10,048 nt of DNA from assembly GCA_020353515.1 (NCBI GenBank), contig CP070695.1, forward strand, positions 246,458-256,505, read 5' to 3'. This document shows positions 1,769-9,654 of the stretch, piece after piece. This DNA comes from Candidatus Heimdallarchaeota archaeon. Lineage in GTDB: Archaea; Asgardarchaeota; Heimdallarchaeia; Hodarchaeales; Hodarchaeaceae. A program made the translations under genes and the position numbers. The notes under the pieces are model-generated. The model worked only from the letters and a program-made list of their open reading frames with translations, did not search any database and was not told where the DNA came from. Every line of letters starts with the position of its first letter. The first letter of the stretch is position 1.

Positions 1769-4700
1769 ATGTTGATGTCAAATTCTGAAATTAGATATTC
1801 ATTATCTAAGTCTGAAAGTAAGCTGTTTTCATCATTAGTAAAACTTGGTGGTCAAACAAAACAAGAATTAGTACTCACTTGTAATATAAATGTTGAAAAA
1901 GCAGATGAAGCTCTTTTAACGTTAATTGATAAAGGATTTATCCAATTAGATGAGGATACAGGAATCTATTTAAAATCTCTTCCATTAGAAAGCGTTATAG
2001 CTCTTCTAAATGATAGCTCTGCAGATATTGAATCGAATAAAAAGGGTGTTGATGAAACTTTCCAAGGACATCGAAAATCAATCGATGAAAACTTAGGAAA
2101 ACTTCGTGAAACTCTTGAAAGCCAGTATGAGGAATTCAAAGCTTCAATTAATACACTACAAACTTCGTTGAAAGAAAAATTCGATGAAACAGAACAACAG
2201 AGAATAAAACAAACCGAAGAACTCACTGAAACATTACTATCGTCATTTTCTACGAATGTAACTGACTTACAAACCGAATTTCAAACCTCGGTGTCTACTG
2301 ATTCAGCAACATTCGAGAAAGAATGGATGAATGTTCTTGATGGTTTCCAAAGCATCCCTGAAACAGGTACACGTACTCTTAAAGGATCTATTACAAAATA
2401 TGAGAAAGAATTATCTGAAATTATCAAGTTAAGCGTGAAAAAAATAACATCTATTCAATCTCAATTATCAGATATTGTTACAGCAATTGAAACGGAATCT
2501 ACGAATCAGATTCAAGAATTCTTTGTTAATTCCAAATCATTTTCAGAAGAGTTCACAAAAAATGTAAACACAGGTTTACAAGAATCTAGGAAACAGGAAA
2601 GAGAATTTTTAAATGAGATTCGACAAAGATTGCAAGTGACATTGGGAGAAGAGATAATAAAAGCATTGGAGAGTGTTGTTAAAAATTTAGGGAAGGATAT
2701 TGACAAAGAAATCAACCAAGCTGTCGAAGAAGTTAAACAACAAACAAATAATGCCATCACTGATAGTTCAAACCAAATAAAGGCTGAATTTAAAGAATTC
2801 GTTGAAAATGCTTCTGAATTAATCCAGGAGCAAAAATCTTCTTTAGATGTCTTGAATACAGAACTAACGAAGTTATCTTCAGAGAAAAAGTTGACATCAC
2901 TTTCAGATACATTTAAGCGGCAATTACAGGCTCACTTGTCAGCAGATATGAATAGTTTGGAACTAAATTATCGTCGTGCACAAAAAGCAACTATTGACAT
3001 CATGGAAGAAATTCGTCGGGCAGCGAAAAAACGATTAATCCAGCAGAGTAAAGAGTTCGAAGGCCTCATTCATTCATTCAATACCATAATTGAGAAGTCA
3101 ATTGCGAGAAAAGATATGGATATTAGTCACCTCCAGCGATTATCTCAATCCATTGTCCAATTACTTGGAAATTTACTAATATCAGTTCCAATGCGATCTA
3201 ATAATTTTAAAACAATATTAAAAAACTCTATTAATAATTCTGTTTTGGAACTCAAGGAAGGAATGAGTGAAACATCATTAAATCCTGTTAAAGATATCTA
3301 TGATTCTTTATCAAGTACTCAGAAGAGAATTGAGACATCATTTAAGGAAACGAAGGAAGAGTGCCAAAAAGAGATTCGCAAAGCTATTAGTTCAACTACT
3401 CAATTGAACAGTACAGTCAATAATCTTCAAGAGGCTTTTTTAGAAAAAGTAGAACATAGATTTGAGCAAAGGGCAAAAGTTATGAACACAGAGCTAGAAG
3501 CTGTCGCCCGTAACTTTCAACAGGTTATAGACACAATGGAAGGAGGATTCGGGGATATCAATGATAGGTTCTCGGCTGAAAAAATCACTTTTAATCTTGA
3601 AACATCTCTTCAGAATTTAATCACTCAACTAAAGAATGATGTCGATCATGTTTTCACACAAAATCAAAAAGATTCTTCTGGATATATCACTCGGTTGGAC
3701 ACAACGTTACAAAGCCACCTTGATAGAACTCTTGATGTCATTAAAGAAGGTTTTAGCCAAATTAAAACCGAATTTACGATTGAATTGGAAGAACAGCTTA
3801 ATCAGATTAATAAAAGTAGTGAAAATCAACAGATCAACCTGAATACTATAATTGATTCGTTTTCTGGTCAAAATGTAGAGCAATTTACAAAATTTAAAAC
3901 TGATTTGAATAAGGCAATTGAAGAAAGTCAGAAAATAGTCACGGATTTCATTACCGAGAGTCAAAGGTCAACAACTGAAGTCGTAGATCTACAACAATCA
4001 AATATCGAAAAGTACCAAGAGAAAGGAACGAATGATATCTTATCTTTCATTAATCAGATCGAATCAGAAGTTTCAAATCAGAACCAGAAAGTGAAAGATG
4101 CGATGGATGAGCTTGAAACTTATTATAACACTTACTCTGATTCCACTTTTGGAGAGGTTAATAATCTATTTAGACAAGTTCAAGAAAGTGGAGACAAACT
4201 TACAGTATTAGTTACTGATTCTTTACAGAATGCTACTAGTTGTCTTGATAAGATCACAGAAGATCTCGATATTTATTATACAGACTCCTTTACAGATCTA
4301 GAAAACCAATTAAGCGTCACCACAGGTTTTGTCACCTCCGAAATTGAAAACTCTACCAAAACTGTTGAAGAGGAGGTAGTAACATTAAAAGGTGAGTTGT
4401 CTGAAGCTGTGGAAGGATTAAGTGCTGGTATCAGAGATCAGATCACTCGTCAAGATCAAGAATTCCAAACTAAAACCCCAGAACAGTCTCAGGAATTTAC
4501 TCAGGTCTTTGATGATATAATTCAAGAGCGCTCGCGTTCAAATCATGAGTTAGAGGAGAAAATCGATGAAAGTTTAGTAAAACTAATGCAGGACTGGAAT
4601 ACAGAGTTACAAAAGAGTAAATCGAGATTAAAGGATGTCTCAGACGCCATTAATAAAGCTATTGGAGCAAACCTCGAGAATTTAGAAATAATCGTGAAAA

Positions 4701-5965
4701 CCAACGTTGAAGAAACAATACAATCTTTGAGTGCAATCCTAGATCTAGAATCTTCCAAGGAAGATATCCTTGGATTACGTGAGATCCAAGAGAAAGTGAA
4801 ATTAGCAAATAAACGTCTGAAATCAGCAATATCTGAGAGTTTACAGTCACATATAGAACGAATTGACCAACAAATGGTTCCAGAATTGGTTACATCATAT
4901 GAAGCAGCCCATACCCAGACTGAGGAAGATCTCTCAACCTATCTAGAAGATTTGAGTGATTTAATATCTAGCTCACAAACGGCATATATTAATCAACTAC
5001 ATAAATATCTGAAGGAAGAACGTCAGAGCCTCGACTTCTCCGAGATGAAAGACGATCTAAATGAAATGTTAAGTGCTTTTTCGCAATCTACGACTGAGGA
5101 TGTTGAAGCTTTATCAGCAGACTTAGCTGATAGTATTCAACTGACCATCAAAGAGGTTGAAAAATCACGAGAACAGATTCAAAATCTCTTTTCCAAATTA
5201 TCGATATTAATGGTTGACCAGAATACAGCATTGCTAGAAAAACTAACAAAATTCAAGGAAGAGCTATCTACAACAGTTGATAACGTTAACAATGATTTTA
5301 AAAAGGATCTAGAAGCAAATCTCGACTCTTATAACACTGACCTCAATAAAAATTCCCTTGAGCTCACAGGAAAAGCCAACCAGATAACTCAGACTGTAAC
5401 AGAAGAGCTTGACGGTCAAATCTCGGAGGTACTAGATCGAACACATGTTCTTTTTGAAAATTTGATATCTACAAATGATCAACATATCAATACTTTACAA
5501 GAAATTGCTAGTGAGTTTTCTCGAGTTAAACCTGTTGATGTTATTCGATTGGTTAATTTACCTTCTGATGAGGCCAAAAATGAGTTTATCATCGAAATGA
5601 TCCATTCAGCATCTAAACAAATCTTCATTGTGACATCAAATCCGACATTCTTATCCGTAGCTGACTTGAAAGCAATTCCTTCAGAAAAGCGTATATTCAT
5701 AATCACTGACTTTGATTTTACTAAGAAGGGCAAAAAGTGGGTAACTGAGGTAGGTAAACAAGTTAACATTAATTTCTACAAATTAAAAACAAGTAAACTA
5801 TCAGGGATTCTAGTAATAAAGGATGAGAATTCAGTTTTAGTCTTACCCAATTCACTTGGTTTCACAAGCACAGATGAAAAACTTGTTTCCAATCTTTCTA
5901 GTATAACAAGTTTGCTTAAAGGGGCATCTCTTCGATTAAGAACACCAAAAAAGAAGAGCACTTAG
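1769..5965 (+). CDS. Giant coiled-coil protein with N-terminal TrmB-like winged helix-turn-helix and C-terminal PLD-like (TrmB effector-type) domain
   Basis: aa 10-75, LSKSESKLFSSLVKLGGQTKQELVLTCNINVEKADEALLTLIDKGFIQLDEDTGIYLKSLPLE, fits the TrmB wHTH pattern. aa 80-1255 is an E/Q/K/L/S-rich amphipathic helical region with only 5 internal prolines. aa 1257-1398, FIIEMIHSASKQIFIVTS...RIFIIT...GILVIKDENSVLV, fits the PLD-like fold of TrmB C-terminal domains. No Walker A/B motif, signal peptide or TM helix seen. Confidence 0.75.
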   Translation: MLMSNSEIRYSLSKSESKLFSSLVKLGGQTKQELVLTCNINVEKADEALLTLIDKGFIQLDEDTGIYLKSLPLESVIALLNDSSADIESNKKGVDETFQGHRKSIDENLGKLRETLESQYEEFKASINTLQTSLKEKFDETEQQRIKQTEELTETLLSSFSTNVTDLQTEFQTSVSTDSATFEKEWMNVLDGFQSIPETGTRTLKGSITKYEKELSEIIKLSVKKITSIQSQLSDIVTAIETESTNQIQEFFVNSKSFSEEFTKNVNTGLQESRKQEREFLNEIRQRLQVTLGEEIIKALESVVKNLGKDIDKEINQAVEEVKQQTNNAITDSSNQIKAEFKEFVENASELIQEQKSSLDVLNTELTKLSSEKKLTSLSDTFKRQLQAHLSADMNSLELNYRRAQKATIDIMEEIRRAAKKRLIQQSKEFEGLIHSFNTIIEKSIARKDMDISHLQRLSQSIVQLLGNLLISVPMRSNNFKTILKNSINNSVLELKEGMSETSLNPVKDIYDSLSSTQKRIETSFKETKEECQKEIRKAISSTTQLNSTVNNLQEAFLEKVEHRFEQRAKVMNTELEAVARNFQQVIDTMEGGFGDINDRFSAEKITFNLETSLQNLITQLKNDVDHVFTQNQKDSSGYITRLDTTLQSHLDRTLDVIKEGFSQIKTEFTIELEEQLNQINKSSENQQINLNTIIDSFSGQNVEQFTKFKTDLNKAIEESQKIVTDFITESQRSTTEVVDLQQSNIEKYQEKGTNDILSFINQIESEVSNQNQKVKDAMDELETYYNTYSDSTFGEVNNLFRQVQESGDKLTVLVTDSLQNATSCLDKITEDLDIYYTDSFTDLENQLSVTTGFVTSEIENSTKTVEEEVVTLKGELSEAVEGLSAGIRDQITRQDQEFQTKTPEQSQEFTQVFDDIIQERSRSNHELEEKIDESLVKLMQDWNTELQKSKSRLKDVSDAINKAIGANLENLEIIVKTNVEETIQSLSAILDLESSKEDILGLREIQEKVKLANKRLKSAISESLQSHIERIDQQMVPELVTSYEAAHTQTEEDLSTYLEDLSDLISSSQTAYINQLHKYLKEERQSLDFSEMKDDLNEMLSAFSQSTTEDVEALSADLADSIQLTIKEVEKSREQIQNLFSKLSILMVDQNTALLEKLTKFKEELSTTVDNVNNDFKKDLEANLDSYNTDLNKNSLELTGKANQITQTVTEELDGQISEVLDRTHVLFENLISTNDQHINTLQEIASEFSRVKPVDVIRLVNLPSDEAKNEFIIEMIHSASKQIFIVTSNPTFLSVADLKAIPSEKRIFIITDFDFTKKGKKWVTEVGKQVNINFYKLKTSKLSGILVIKDENSVLVLPNSLGFTSTDEKLVSNLSSITSLLKGASLRLRTPKKKST

Positions 5966-5977
5966 GATAATATCTAT

Positions 5978-7798
5978 TTAGATAGTGATTAATCCTAGTA
6001 ATCCCGCTTTTTTCAAGGTTTTTTTGTTTACTAATCCTTTCTGAGTCAGACCTTTTCTAGCGTAATATTCTGTAAGCAACTCATCTTGCATCTTGAAAAA
6101 GTCAGGCCTTTTTTTAAGAAACAGGGGAAAGCGATCCTCTTCTCTAGCCATCCCTGTTCGTGTGTTAAAAATTCGTTCTAAAAGTGTTATTCGATTGCCA
6201 ATTGTTAATAATTTATTAAAAGTCAGATCTTGATCAGAAATGTTCCTCAACAAAGGACGTAAATTGTGTAGTTCTAATCCGAAATTCCCAATTAAAATGT
6301 CAGGAATTAGATTGAAGAGGTTATTGCGGAGATTAGGTGATAACCATCTGAATATTCGACGAACATCTAGGAGAAAGGGGAGATATCTAGAACAAAGTAC
6401 AAGAGAATCGAGAACTGCAACTAATTTTTCAAGGAGTATGATAGTTTTAATTTTTCCTCGCTTAGAACTTGGATTAAGCTTGAACGGAAAACCTAGAAGT
6501 TCGGGAAAGATCATATAATCCGACCGAAAGTTATCAGCTCCGTATGGGGAAGTACTACTAGCCAAACTTAACCCTAAAATGTTAGGATAATAAAACATTC
6601 CTGCCATTTGACCTTTAATCATTGGAGATGGTTCACTGGTCTGTTGATAAAGATAAATCTCACCACGAGATAATTGATCGCCCATTTCTTCTCTTTTAAT
6701 GATTTTTTCAATCAAAGAATAGATTTTGGGATTACTCCAATTATACCCAAGATCAATATCTAATAATTTTCTTCTATCTTCTTGAATATTAAATAATGAA
6801 GCTAGTGCAGCTCCTGTAGATAATGGATCCAAAGCCTCCTGATCACAGGATTCAATAGCTTTTTGGATATTTTCTATGTCAACAATCTTTAAATTTGGAC
6901 CTAATGCCACGAAATCTTGGTATGAACAACGGAGACAATGTACAGGACATTGCCAACACTGAAGCGGTTCTCCATAACCTCTAAAAGATGATACTTTTTC
7001 TTGGGATATTTGTAATAAACGAGAACAATTTTTGGCTGGAAGAATAGTGTTTTCAATGATAGAAAACATTATTGAAAATGGTCCACGGTTACGAAGCATG
7101 TTATACCATTTTGATAGTTCAATTGATTTGTTAAATTGATCAGTATCTTCGTGTGATAACCCCTCTAGTTCTCGGGTCTCTGGGGTCTCAGTTATTACGA
7201 TTGCTTTGATGTTCTTTGAAGCCAAAACCGCTCCTAATCCTCCACGTCGAAAAAAATGAACACGGTCAACTGCTACGCCAGCATAAGTAACTTGGTTTAC
7301 AGCTGACATACCTATAACTGCAATGCTAGAGTCTTTCCCATATTTGGTTCGTAACCATTTATCCGCTTCCAATACATTTTTCTTCCAAATTGGCTCTGCA
7401 TTCTCAAGTGTTATATCAGAAAACTCATCTATTAAAATATATTTTGGAGTTTTGGCGCATCCTAAAATTTGGAAGAAATCTAAACCCACTTGCTTCAAAC
7501 TCGCGCCGAATCGCCCAGTAGCAATAGAAGTAAACAAAGTATTAGTCTGAGGAGATTTAAAAGTGGCAACAGCCATACCAGATGACGGAAACATCGTTGC
7601 AGTAAGAATTCCTGTCCCAAAAATTACCGAATTATCGGGTCCACGTGGACTAGCATCTGTAGGAATTGATTGATAACCAAGATAAACAGTAATTCCACGA
7701 CCACCAAGAAAATTTTCAATAATTCTTGTTTCAATTTTTACTGTTGGCAAAATTTTATCTTCTGTCAGGTCAAGTATTACTAATTGTGGGTTCCACAT
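5978..7798 (-). CDS. Aldehyde:ferredoxin oxidoreductase (AOR/WOR tungstopterin) family protein, divergent
   Basis: Motifs FLGGRG, FKSPQT, FGASLKQVGLD, RGGLGAVLASKNIKAI, CWQCPVHC (4Fe-4S), DPLSTG, GDQLSRG, DSLVLC (fourth Cys ligand), GNRITLLERIFN, EDRFP and EYYARKG. 606 aa is the normal AOR length. AGGTG lies upstream (about 7810-7814, minus strand). Confidence 0.9.
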   Translation of the reverse strand: MWNPQLVILDLTEDKILPTVKIETRIIENFLGGRGITVYLGYQSIPTDASPRGPDNSVIFGTGILTATMFPSSGMAVATFKSPQTNTLFTSIATGRFGASLKQVGLDFFQILGCAKTPKYILIDEFSDITLENAEPIWKKNVLEADKWLRTKYGKDSSIAVIGMSAVNQVTYAGVAVDRVHFFRRGGLGAVLASKNIKAIVITETPETRELEGLSHEDTDQFNKSIELSKWYNMLRNRGPFSIMFSIIENTILPAKNCSRLLQISQEKVSSFRGYGEPLQCWQCPVHCLRCSYQDFVALGPNLKIVDIENIQKAIESCDQEALDPLSTGAALASLFNIQEDRRKLLDIDLGYNWSNPKIYSLIEKIIKREEMGDQLSRGEIYLYQQTSEPSPMIKGQMAGMFYYPNILGLSLASSTSPYGADNFRSDYMIFPELLGFPFKLNPSSKRGKIKTIILLEKLVAVLDSLVLCSRYLPFLLDVRRIFRWLSPNLRNNLFNLIPDILIGNFGLELHNLRPLLRNISDQDLTFNKLLTIGNRITLLERIFNTRTGMAREEDRFPLFLKKRPDFFKMQDELLTEYYARKGLTQKGLVNKKTLKKAGLLGLITI

Positions 7799-7828: not shown

Positions 7829-9283
7829 TTATATGAGATTGGAATATTTCGTGGTGAATTGTCTTTTTGGACATGATATATCTTCGATATTTGTACCAAC
7901 AACTTCATTATTGAAAAGAAAGAGTTCTAATAACCTTGTTAATACAATTGAATCACACTCTTCCCGAGAACGATCTCTAAAGTCCCATAATGTTAAGTAC
8001 CATTTTTCTTGCTGGAATTTTTCTTTATCGATAGCACAATCTTCTTTTTCTTGTTTGGATTTACTTTTATAATTGAATTTTCCCTTTTGAAAAAGTAAAA
8101 CCTCGTAGAAGCAATGGTCAAATACTATTTTAGATTTAAATTGACTAATAACTTCCCACTGTGCTTCTGGCTGGTGTTGAATCGTTATTTTGTCACGGAG
8201 GCGTAATCCATGTTTCATAACATGATCTGTTAGTTTATTAAGAGACAAATTGGATACAGAATTATCTAAAGAGTCATGCATAACTGCTAAAATGCGGCCA
8301 GGAAATAGGTTGTCAATTAATTTTGAAAATTTTTCATTGAGGGCAGTATTAGGAATATTTCTGCAATTTAAGACTAATAAATGATAATTATAATTATTGA
8401 TGGGTTTATATTCATTTAAAGCTTGAGGTAGAAAGGAATAATTCGTTTTCTCTCTTTGGTTGTTGCTTTTTATTCGAATTTTCTCCAATTGTAAAATATC
8501 GTCACTTATAGGGTCTGAATCAAAGAAATTATCGAGATTTTTTATTGAAAATCCTGATTTCTCACGAATTACAGGGATAAGTTCTTCTAGGATTTCTACT
8601 CCAATTGAGTTTCGCTTGAGTTGCCGTGCGACTTTCATTGTAGTTCCTGAACCTAGAAATGGGTCACAAATCCATGCTCCTTTTTGGGTAAAAATCTTGA
8701 TAAGTTTGCTAGGTAGTTCATCTGGAAAAGCAGCAATATTAGTTTCAAGTCGTCCCTTCAGAGGTAAAACATTAGTTATTTCCCAAATATCCTGATATGA
8801 ATTTATTTCATCTTTAGTAAGTTTTAACGGAGATGGTTTCTGAAATATAAGAATATTTTCAAGCAAGTTGTCGGGATAATAATACATGGGATACGGATTT
8901 TGTAATAAGACACCACTTCGCCTACTAATACGAATGTATCCTTCAGGCTTCCTCCAAACAATCTTTCCTCTTAAGATATAACCCGTATTAAAGAATATTT
9001 TAATCGTATCAGAGATAATCGGATATTTAACACTTTTAATCAGCATATCATCGATATTAAGACCGATGATACCACCTGGCTTTAAAGCTTTGAAATACAA
9101 ATCCGCAAATTTATTCATCATATGTAAGAAGGCTTCATAATTTTCAAAAAGTTCATCATAATCAAAAGGAGCATTAAAATATGGAGGAGATGTCACTAAA
9201 AGGTCAATTGCTGGCAGATTGAGAATTTCAGTTGCTTTGGTACAATCTCCAATTAAAAGGTAGTGTTTTGTTGGGAAAGACAT
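7829..9283 (-). CDS. Beta-class amino-DNA methyltransferase (N6_N4_Mtase; SPPY suggests m4C) with a degenerate second MTase-like domain at the C-terminus
   Basis: Motif IV IDLLVTSPPYF (about 9179-9190), LKPGG, ENILIFQK, DIWEI, AAFPDELP, motif I ICDPFLGSGTT (about 8645-8665) and RNSIGVEI. Motif IV before motif I is the beta order. aa 300-484 echoes the same fold without the catalytic motifs. Confidence 0.92.
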   Translation of the reverse strand: MSFPTKHYLLIGDCTKATEILNLPAIDLLVTSPPYFNAPFDYDELFENYEAFLHMMNKFADLYFKALKPGGIIGLNIDDMLIKSVKYPIISDTIKIFFNTGYILRGKIVWRKPEGYIRISRRSGVLLQNPYPMYYYPDNLLENILIFQKPSPLKLTKDEINSYQDIWEITNVLPLKGRLETNIAAFPDELPSKLIKIFTQKGAWICDPFLGSGTTMKVARQLKRNSIGVEILEELIPVIREKSGFSIKNLDNFFDSDPISDDILQLEKIRIKSNNQREKTNYSFLPQALNEYKPINNYNYHLLVLNCRNIPNTALNEKFSKLIDNLFPGRILAVMHDSLDNSVSNLSLNKLTDHVMKHGLRLRDKITIQHQPEAQWEVISQFKSKIVFDHCFYEVLLFQKGKFNYKSKSKQEKEDCAIDKEKFQQEKWYLTLWDFRDRSREECDSIVLTRLLELFLFNNEVVGTNIEDISCPKRQFTTKYSNLI

Positions 9284-9654
9284 TGATCATCTACATATTG
9301 TAAAAGTGAATTATGAAACAAAATACTCTTTTTGTGTTAATGTGACAGAAAAATATCAAGATTCTTATAATTTGTCAATATTTTGAGTATTTGATATGTC
9401 GCCAAATCATGGTTTGAAGACTTATTAACTCGAATCAGAAATTTTTATCTAAATCATTCAAAAAAAATGGGTTAGTGATGTTTTAGGAAGATTCTAAGGC
9501 TTCAAAATTATTCTTTTGAAGACGATCTGCCAAGAAAAACGCTATTGTGAACAGTGAAAACAGTACTAGATGGATTGCAGGTCGTAAAATCAAGCTAGTA
9601 AAAGAAAAATTAGCGAGATTATGTTGAAATCTTCATCTATTTACAACGTTCTGT

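Follow-up and report, generated by a model that had tools for sequence, protein, structure and literature searches.

An Asgard archaeal beta-class DNA methyltransferase joined to a degenerate copy of itself, a probable single-chain pseudo-dimer

The stretch of DNA analyzed here (the window; 10,048 nucleotides of contig CP070695.1 of Candidatus Heimdallarchaeota archaeon, GenBank assembly GCA_020353515.1, positions 246,458 to 256,505) carries on its minus strand, at positions 7829-9283, a methyltransferase gene of 484 codons and a stop, as read from the list of open reading frames (ORFs) and the translation. The encoded protein is built of an active-looking methyltransferase domain (hereafter N-half), a linker, and a degenerate second methyltransferase domain (C-half). 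A preliminary description, made from the letters of the window alone, had placed the gene at these same coordinates, without giving the strand, and had read its product as a DNA methyltransferase fused to a catalytically dead copy of itself. We propose, with a probability of about 0.7 and by analogy with the crystallized enzyme M.BceJIV, that the product of the gene is a beta-class DNA amino-methyltransferase in the form of a single-chain pseudo-dimer. The broader proposition that this is the first natural single-chain beta-class DNA methyltransferase, in which an obligate two-site homodimer became a monomer with one composite site through duplication and exactly reciprocal degeneration, appears to us slightly better than an even bet. 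Twenty-three full-length homologues of 483-531 residues were found, every one of them from Asgard archaea; the names attached to the closest are Hodarchaeales, Hermodarchaeota, Thorarchaeota and Promethearchaeota.

The N-half (residues 1-245; 8549-9283, minus strand, as for all features of this gene) is a complete beta-class N6_N4 DNA methyltransferase domain. Residues 26-239 match the Pfam family N6_N4_Mtase (PF01555) with an E-value of 1.7e-38 and 133.2 bits, against a cut-off of 26.7, over positions 1-219 of the 221 in the profile. The order of motifs is that of the beta class, motif IV (TSPPY, residues 31-35; 9179-9193), which is invariant in the 23 homologues, standing ahead of motif I, and the domain displays the whole family succession of motifs IV to VIII, recognition segment, motif X and motif I with the signatures (D/N/S)PP(Y/F) and FxGxG. 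Motif I (CDPFLGSGTT, residues 206-215; 8639-8668) contains the S-adenosylmethionine (SAM)-binding FxGxG as FLGSG at residues 209-213, is invariant from D207 to T215 and aligns with motif I of solved methyltransferases. The loop between the fourth and fifth strands (residues 112-142, KPEGY...DNLLE; 8858-8950), which corresponds to loop-45 of M.BceJIV, has the 31 residues found in single-domain relatives and a mean identity of 96% among orthologues over residues 112-140. The 19-residue loop before motif X (residues 169-187, ending in NVLPLKGRLETNIAAFP; 8723-8779), corresponding to loop-6F, holds many invariant residues. Of the target-recognition segment, the N-half has kept a shortened and poorly conserved remnant (residues 150-165; 8789-8836) that forms no helices in the AlphaFold2 (AF2) model and whose identity among orthologues, 35% over residues 149-166, is at the level of the linker.

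The closest solved relative of the N-half by sequence is TTHA0409 (E 6.1e-16), and structural comparison with VIA of the N-half in the full-length AF2 model returned Z-scores of 19.2 for TTHA0409, 19.0 for M.MboIIA, 18.8 for CcrM, 18.2 for M.PvuII and 18.0 for M.BceJIV. As to the reaction catalyzed, TSPPY has been called characteristic of N4-cytosine methyltransferases (10.1101/2021.02.12.428880), and SPPY is motif IV of N4CMT (PMC10406627). The N-half thus has the SPP(Y/F) of N4-cytosine enzymes rather than DPP(Y/F) and, because the serine in motif IV marks such enzymes, N4-methylcytosine is its likely product. The label "adenine-specific" that some sources give was set aside, the motif IV serine favoring N4-methylcytosine.

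A variable linker (residues 246-291; 8411-8548), predicted to be disordered, with a predicted local distance difference test score (pLDDT) below 50 for residues 232-281, leads to the C-half (residues 292-484; 7832-8410), which is the methyltransferase domain over again in degenerate form, that is, a pseudoenzyme domain. Direct alignment of the two halves, a check suggested in the preliminary description, is not significant (BLASTP E about 1; hhalign P 0.08), and the C-half has no Pfam match at E <= 0.1 and no match in a sequence search of the PDB. Homology between the halves therefore rests on single-domain intermediates and is transitive. When residues 246-484 were searched against 5.8 billion proteins, 25 two-domain Asgard proteins were recovered together with three single-domain methyltransferases (E 5.9e-6 to 5.9e-4) of 275-285 residues that match the C-half pairwise with BLASTP E-values of 2e-14 to 7e-13; one of the three, P0027, is 50% identical to the N-half (E 9e-90). 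Where the direct alignment failed, comparison of a C-half profile with a profile of the single-domain enzymes succeeded, giving an hhalign probability of 99.3% and an E-value of 3.7e-20 over 143 columns. When N-halves, C-halves and single-domain relatives were aligned with MAFFT, moreover, all six pairs of motifs through which the preliminary description had drawn its parallel between the two copies share columns, among them IDLLVTSPPY and YHLLVLNCRN, GYILRGKIVW and GLRLRDKITI, ENILIFQK and YEVLLFQK, and DIWEI and TLWDF. What that description had observed, a second and altered copy within one chain, is confirmed.

Structure prediction points in the same direction. Modeled alone from 27 sequences, the C-half gave an AF2 model with a pLDDT of 87.3 and a predicted template modeling score (pTM) of 0.82. 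With VIA, searched against 48,161 PDB representatives, the top 20 matches of the C-half were all beta-class or MT-A70 methyltransferases, with Z-scores from 13.9 down to 7.2, the first unrelated fold appearing at 5.6. The best match was TTHA0409 (2zie_A; Z 13.9, 173 residues aligned), with CcrM and M.MboIIA at 12.1 and M.BceJIV at 11.8, and Foldseek agreed (E 1e-8). As modeled, then, the C-half has a beta-class methyltransferase fold, contrary to the possibility, named in the preliminary description as one that would undo its reading, that this region has no such fold at all.

The same description had noted that SPPY and FxGxG are lost in the second copy, and this is true of all 23 full-length homologues. 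The C-half counterpart of motif IV (LNCRN, residues 305-309; 8357-8371) lacks the catalytic loop, its columns in the 23 homologues reading D/N, C/F/L, R (23/23) and N/K/G. The counterpart of motif I (VVGTNIEDISC, residues 461-471; 7871-7903) lacks the glycine loop and reads G-T/S-N-I, with N465, C471 and R474 invariant in the same 23 proteins. Both the catalytic and the SAM-binding motifs expected of an active enzyme are thus gone from every homologue, and the corresponding loops are deleted in all 12 C-halves aligned. The invariant residues at these dead pockets (R308, N465, C471, R474) may, less probably, form a new ligand or base-binding site. What the C-half retains is a full-length target-recognition segment (GKFNYKS...KWYLT, residues 401-431; 7991-8083) predicted to form two short helices, placed in the model at residues 410-415 and 420-425, in the position and shape of the target-recognition domain of M.BceJIV. 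It also keeps the core strands and helix described as the interface of the M.BceJIV dimer, and its GLRLRDKIT is nearer to the GFRYRDRI of single-domain enzymes than is the N-half's own version.

Mean pairwise identity among orthologues is 75% for the N-half, 59% for the C-half and 37% for the linker, and the best-conserved part of the C-half is its recognition segment, at 71%. Ratios of nonsynonymous to synonymous substitution (dN/dS), estimated by the Nei-Gojobori method on five pairs and approximate given that dS is near saturation, are 0.09-0.13 for the N-half, 0.16-0.21 for the C-half and 0.40-0.55 for the linker. Twenty-eight columns of the C-half are invariant across 27 sequences, no stops or frameshifts were found in the 23 homologues, and frames of 434-489 residues are open in 13 genomic matches. 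Judging from these comparisons, the C-half is a conserved pseudoenzyme domain under purifying selection and not the unconserved, decaying sequence that the preliminary description had also considered, the dN/dS of the C-half standing well below that of the linker. That the C-half would be a non-functional relic of duplication on its way to loss, as the disappearance of both defining motifs and a stem branch four times that of the N-half (3.81 versus 0.91) might suggest, is hardly tenable in the face of its intact frames, low dN/dS, invariant columns and confidently predicted fold.

The functional elements were measured one by one in an alignment of 24 single-domain relatives with 12 N-halves and as many C-halves. 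The catalytic loop is 23 residues long in single-domain enzymes and in N-halves, versus one residue in C-halves; motif I measures 10, 10 and 3 residues, respectively, and the stretch that follows it 30, 30 and 19. Loop-45 has 31 residues in single-domain enzymes and N-halves and 22-23 in C-halves, and loop-6F has 18, 19 and 10. The recognition segment between motifs VIII and X follows the opposite pattern, with 31 residues in all 24 single-domain enzymes, 16 in N-halves and 31 in C-halves. Identity to the bacterial single-domain relatives is divided in the same manner, being 0.88 for N-halves versus 0.22 for C-halves over loop-45, 0.68 versus 0.05 over loop-6F, and 0.04 versus 0.44 over the recognition segment. 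The N-half has therefore kept the catalytic loop, loop-45, loop-6F and motif I and has lost half of the recognition segment, and the C-half has kept the core of the sheet and a full-length, conserved recognition segment and has lost the catalytic and cofactor loops. These reciprocal losses lend support to the division of labor between recognition and catalysis that the preliminary description had postulated for the two copies.

A mechanistic precedent is provided by M.BceJIV, each subunit of which reads the DNA that it methylates from the minor groove by means of loop-45 and loop-6F (PMC11380664); loop-45 contacts the enzyme's own target DNA and is at the same time part of the dimer interface (PMC11380664). 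The recognition segment of M.BceJIV, two short helices between motifs VIII and X, enters, on the major-groove side, the DNA that the other subunit methylates (PMC11380664). Beta-class methyltransferases in general are probably active only as dimers (PMC7544214). By analogy, the N-copy of the Asgard protein would be responsible for SAM binding, base flipping and contact with its own DNA (TSPPY, loop-45, loop-6F, FxGxG), and the C-half would lend its recognition segment in trans to the N-half active site. If the halves pack as a beta-class dimer does, the N-half pocket and the C-half recognition segment would together make up an intact site, and the C-half pocket and the N-half recognition segment a site that is dead on both counts. 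Each chain would then have a single composite active site and could do without dimerization, and the enzyme is predicted to be a one-site monomer, with a specificity inherited from its restriction-modification ancestor. A one-site pseudo-dimer is the simplest account of the reciprocal deletions; recognition in M.BceJIV acts on the partner's DNA, an arrangement that accounts for the complementary losses of the Asgard protein.

Several observations weigh against this interpretation. Only one of the five full-length AF2 models is confident (pTM 0.80, mean pLDDT 73), the mean pLDDT of the other four being 44-53. In beta-class dimers a "tenon" residue, aromatic or aliphatic, is inserted at the interface (PMC10406627) and, in the alignment, the C-half is about 10 residues shorter at this position, so that the interface cannot be fully symmetrical. 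The trans-recognition mode of M.BceJIV was called unprecedented by its authors (PMC11380664) and may not extend to the subfamily considered here. Finally, the gene is absent from 10 of the 22 genomes of the genus to which the window belongs and is therefore not essential.

The first two of these observations, the low confidence of four of the five full-length models and the lack in the C-half of the loop that bears the tenon in solved relatives, would also fit an arrangement in which the canonical dimer is not reproduced and the C-half is instead a conserved accessory domain serving in DNA binding, in stability or folding, or in docking, with the enzyme acting as an N-N dimer or as a true monomer. 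The rRNA methyltransferase RsmC, whose dead domain is required for the folding of the live one (PMC1934991), offers a precedent for such a role. An N-N homodimer, however, would possess no intact recognition segment, an element that all 24 single-domain relatives keep at its 31 residues, and the stretch of the C-half best conserved among orthologues is precisely this segment. The retention in the C-half of the core strands and of the helix that forms the interface in M.BceJIV, including GLRLRDKIT, is likewise at odds with a generic accessory role, which we consider unlikely.

The single-domain relatives, whose identity to the N-half is 50-57%, occur here and there in many bacterial phyla and in some archaea. 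At most of the loci inspected, a conserved ORF of about 350 codons lies directly downstream of the single-domain methyltransferase gene (L020:8827-9876, L028:8847-9914, L031:8849-9922, L038:8873-9931, L040:8823-9872, L026:5734-6795). Pairwise identity among its products is 41-56%, and their invariant D-E...E-A-K residues are reminiscent of PD-(D/E)xK nucleases; the products have no match in Pfam, NCBIfam or the PDB, nor any plasmid match, and more than 3,000 relatives occur in metagenomes, all of them called hypothetical. The product of this partner gene probably belongs to an uncharacterized family of restriction endonucleases, and the bacterial single-domain loci look like Type II restriction-modification pairs. 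No cognate endonuclease of this kind accompanies the Asgard gene, whose neighbors encode an aldehyde:ferredoxin oxidoreductase (AFOR)-family protein and a CAAX-protease-like protein. The partner family has no match in the 4.94-Mb genome of the host (a single contig, 96% complete) and none flanking the Asgard genes, other nuclease families not having been searched. The two-domain enzyme thus counts as an orphan, having no relative of the partner next to its gene or in the rest of the genome, and it probably marks the host's own DNA.

Orphan status, together with the conserved position of the gene upstream of a metabolic gene, could also suggest that the duplicated enzyme was recruited to RNA or to another substrate and that DNA is no longer its target, as with M.EcoGII or METTL3-METTL14; some members of the beta class do act on single-stranded DNA and RNA (PMC7544214). 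Against this stands the identity of the DNA-contacting elements to those of bacterial restriction-modification enzymes (88% for loop-45 and 68% for loop-6F in the N-half, 44% for the recognition segment in the C-half), which speaks for a substrate of the same kind, perhaps even for an identical site. A patchy presence within one genus is, besides, typical of DNA methyltransferases and not of housekeeping RNA-modification enzymes. We regard a switch of substrate as very improbable, and a DNA-directed pseudo-dimer as the preferred reading.

As regards the origin of the gene, the N-halves (stem 0.91) and the C-halves (stem 3.81) each form a clade of 100% support inside the SPPYFNAPFDY subfamily of single-domain enzymes. 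The best tree found makes the two clades sisters, with a log-likelihood 39 above that of the free search and a P-value of 0.93 in the approximately unbiased test, and the internal branching of the two clades is similar. Subject to possible long-branch effects, the phylogeny favors a single tandem duplication in the Asgard lineage accompanied by a burst of change in the C-copy, in keeping with the duplication put forward in the preliminary description. The ancestor would have been a Type II restriction-modification methyltransferase of about 280 residues, of the SPPYFNAPFDY subfamily, tandem-duplicated in one Asgard lineage. A search of 400 genomes from the phylum recovered the two-domain gene in no GTDB genus other than that of the window, where 12 of 22 genomes (that of the window included) carry it. 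One genome of the set (G073) has two copies of the two-domain gene (C216:2761-3357 and C8:28625-29212), with C-half identities of 72% and 53%, which suggests either two diverged gene lineages or transfer within the genus. Adjacent pairs of methyltransferase genes at two bacterial loci were considered as possible precursors of the duplication and rejected; the extra genes come from other subfamilies and are therefore not duplicates. At L021 the additional gene (1699-2562) encodes a DPPF beta-class enzyme, and at L015 (7713-9140) a 475-residue enzyme in which motif I comes first; both stand beside an SPPY enzyme and its partner in what are three-gene systems.

The neighborhood of the gene in the window was also surveyed. 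The AFOR-family gene (5978-7798, minus strand; AFOR_N E 4e-51, AFOR_C E 5e-46; CxxCxxxC present) lies 30 base pairs downstream of the methyltransferase gene on the same strand, and this order, methyltransferase then AFOR, is seen in six of the six Asgard loci that have downstream sequence, the window included. Convergent to the AFOR gene is a gene for a 1398-residue coiled-coil protein (1769-5965, plus strand). We note that this protein has at its N-terminus a weak TrmB-like helix-turn-helix, whose score (E 5e-5) does not reach the cut-off, as well as long helical repeats of apolipoprotein type, and that a convergent homologue of 1393-1396 residues is kept in L009 and L011-L013 and also in methyltransferase-free genomes. 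A functional tie between the methyltransferase and the AFOR was considered and is unlikely; the AFOR and coiled-coil pair is present without the methyltransferase in two related genomes (G070 and G058), so that the linkage looks positional and not functional. In a further genome (G075) the apparent absence is due to a contig end. Upstream, the neighbor of the methyltransferase gene is the CAAX-protease-like gene, and the 370 base pairs between the two (9284-9654) contain no ORF of at least 60 codons. Elsewhere in the host genome, 17 stretches are similar to this methyltransferase (E <= 1e-3; for example 3381557-3382279, 3539869-3540576 and 490568-491254), indicative of many other N6_N4-type methyltransferase genes; no second two-domain copy is among them.

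The relation of the Asgard protein to characterized enzymes may be summarized as follows. The best solved relative of both halves is TTHA0409 of Thermus thermophilus HB8 (2ZIE/2ZIF/2ZIG), a putative beta-class DNA methylase that is small and homodimeric (PMC7544214) and has the TSPPY motif of the Asgard N-half. It differs in being a single-domain protein whose two identical subunits assemble symmetrically, each with a complete site, whereas the Asgard protein consists of joined copies with complementary losses. M.BceJIV of Burkholderia cenocepacia (8URK, 9C3S-U; PMC11380664) is, like the Asgard protein, an orphan, and a small beta-class enzyme; unlike it, M.BceJIV is an N6-adenine methyltransferase (DPPY) and forms a symmetric homodimer that has two active sites and binds two DNA duplexes, where the Asgard enzyme would have one site and one duplex. 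The single-domain SPPYFNAPFDY enzymes (L020, L028, L031, L038; P0027-P0029, P0033) have identities of 50-57% to the N-half and about 33% to the C-half. They possess all of the elements at the same lengths and are the likely ancestral form; they differ in their 275-305 residues, single domain and adjacent putative nuclease gene, the Asgard form being doubled and devoid of such a partner.

Among eukaryotic enzymes, METTL3-METTL14 and the ciliate MTA1-MTA9 pair an active beta-class subunit with a dead paralogue that aids substrate binding (PMC7544214). METTL3/14 share their fold with the Asgard protein, with VIA Z-scores of 12.8 for the N-half and 9.3 for the C-half that are below those of bacterial N6_N4 enzymes (19.2 and 13.9). 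The eukaryotic pairs differ, however, in consisting of two chains, in belonging to the MT-A70 family of Pfam and in being adenine-specific. No match to MT-A70 was found in the Asgard protein at E <= 0.1; it is not a member of that family, so the likeness is convergent. Nor is there any sign of direct descent, the protein nesting within bacterial-type N6_N4 enzymes and being confined to one genus. The parallel with METTL3/14 drawn in the preliminary description thus holds as an analogy between active/dead pairs but not as kinship, given the missing MT-A70 match and the lower structural scores.

Precedents are offered by two methyltransferases of other families. RsmC, which forms m2G1207 in the 16S rRNA of E. 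coli, arose through tandem duplication followed by complementary degeneration of binding and catalysis (PMC1934991), and PRMT7 is a single-chain pseudo-dimeric methyltransferase (PMC12595767). Both resemble the Asgard protein in having tandem methyltransferase domains in one chain, one copy being degenerate, with binding and catalysis specialized. They differ in family and in substrate (rRNA and protein arginine), the dead copy of RsmC is the N-terminal one, and neither is a beta-class DNA enzyme derived from an obligate homodimer with a trans-acting recognition segment. The evolutionary logic of duplication and complementary degeneration is therefore already known from RsmC and PRMT7, which makes the surprise moderate; no published case of a fused active/dead beta-class DNA methyltransferase was found in the open-access literature.

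The division of tasks within beta-class dimers is known by direct evidence from a few crystal structures, and the sequence of the Asgard protein is a record of it: one copy has held on to the elements with which a subunit handles its own DNA, and the other to the element applied to the DNA of the partner. If our interpretation is correct, it would support the model proposed for M.BceJIV beyond M.BceJIV itself and provide a natural experiment in favor of general trans recognition among small beta-class enzymes, as well as a compact, concentration-independent and monomeric methyltransferase scaffold. It would further mean that a prokaryote, from the archaea most closely related to eukaryotes, arrived by a route of its own at the kind of active/dead pairing that METTL3-METTL14 and MTA1-MTA9 display. 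If confirmed, the Asgard enzyme would thus add to the active/dead writer pairs of eukaryotes a prokaryotic example that operates at the DNA level and evolved independently in Asgard archaea.

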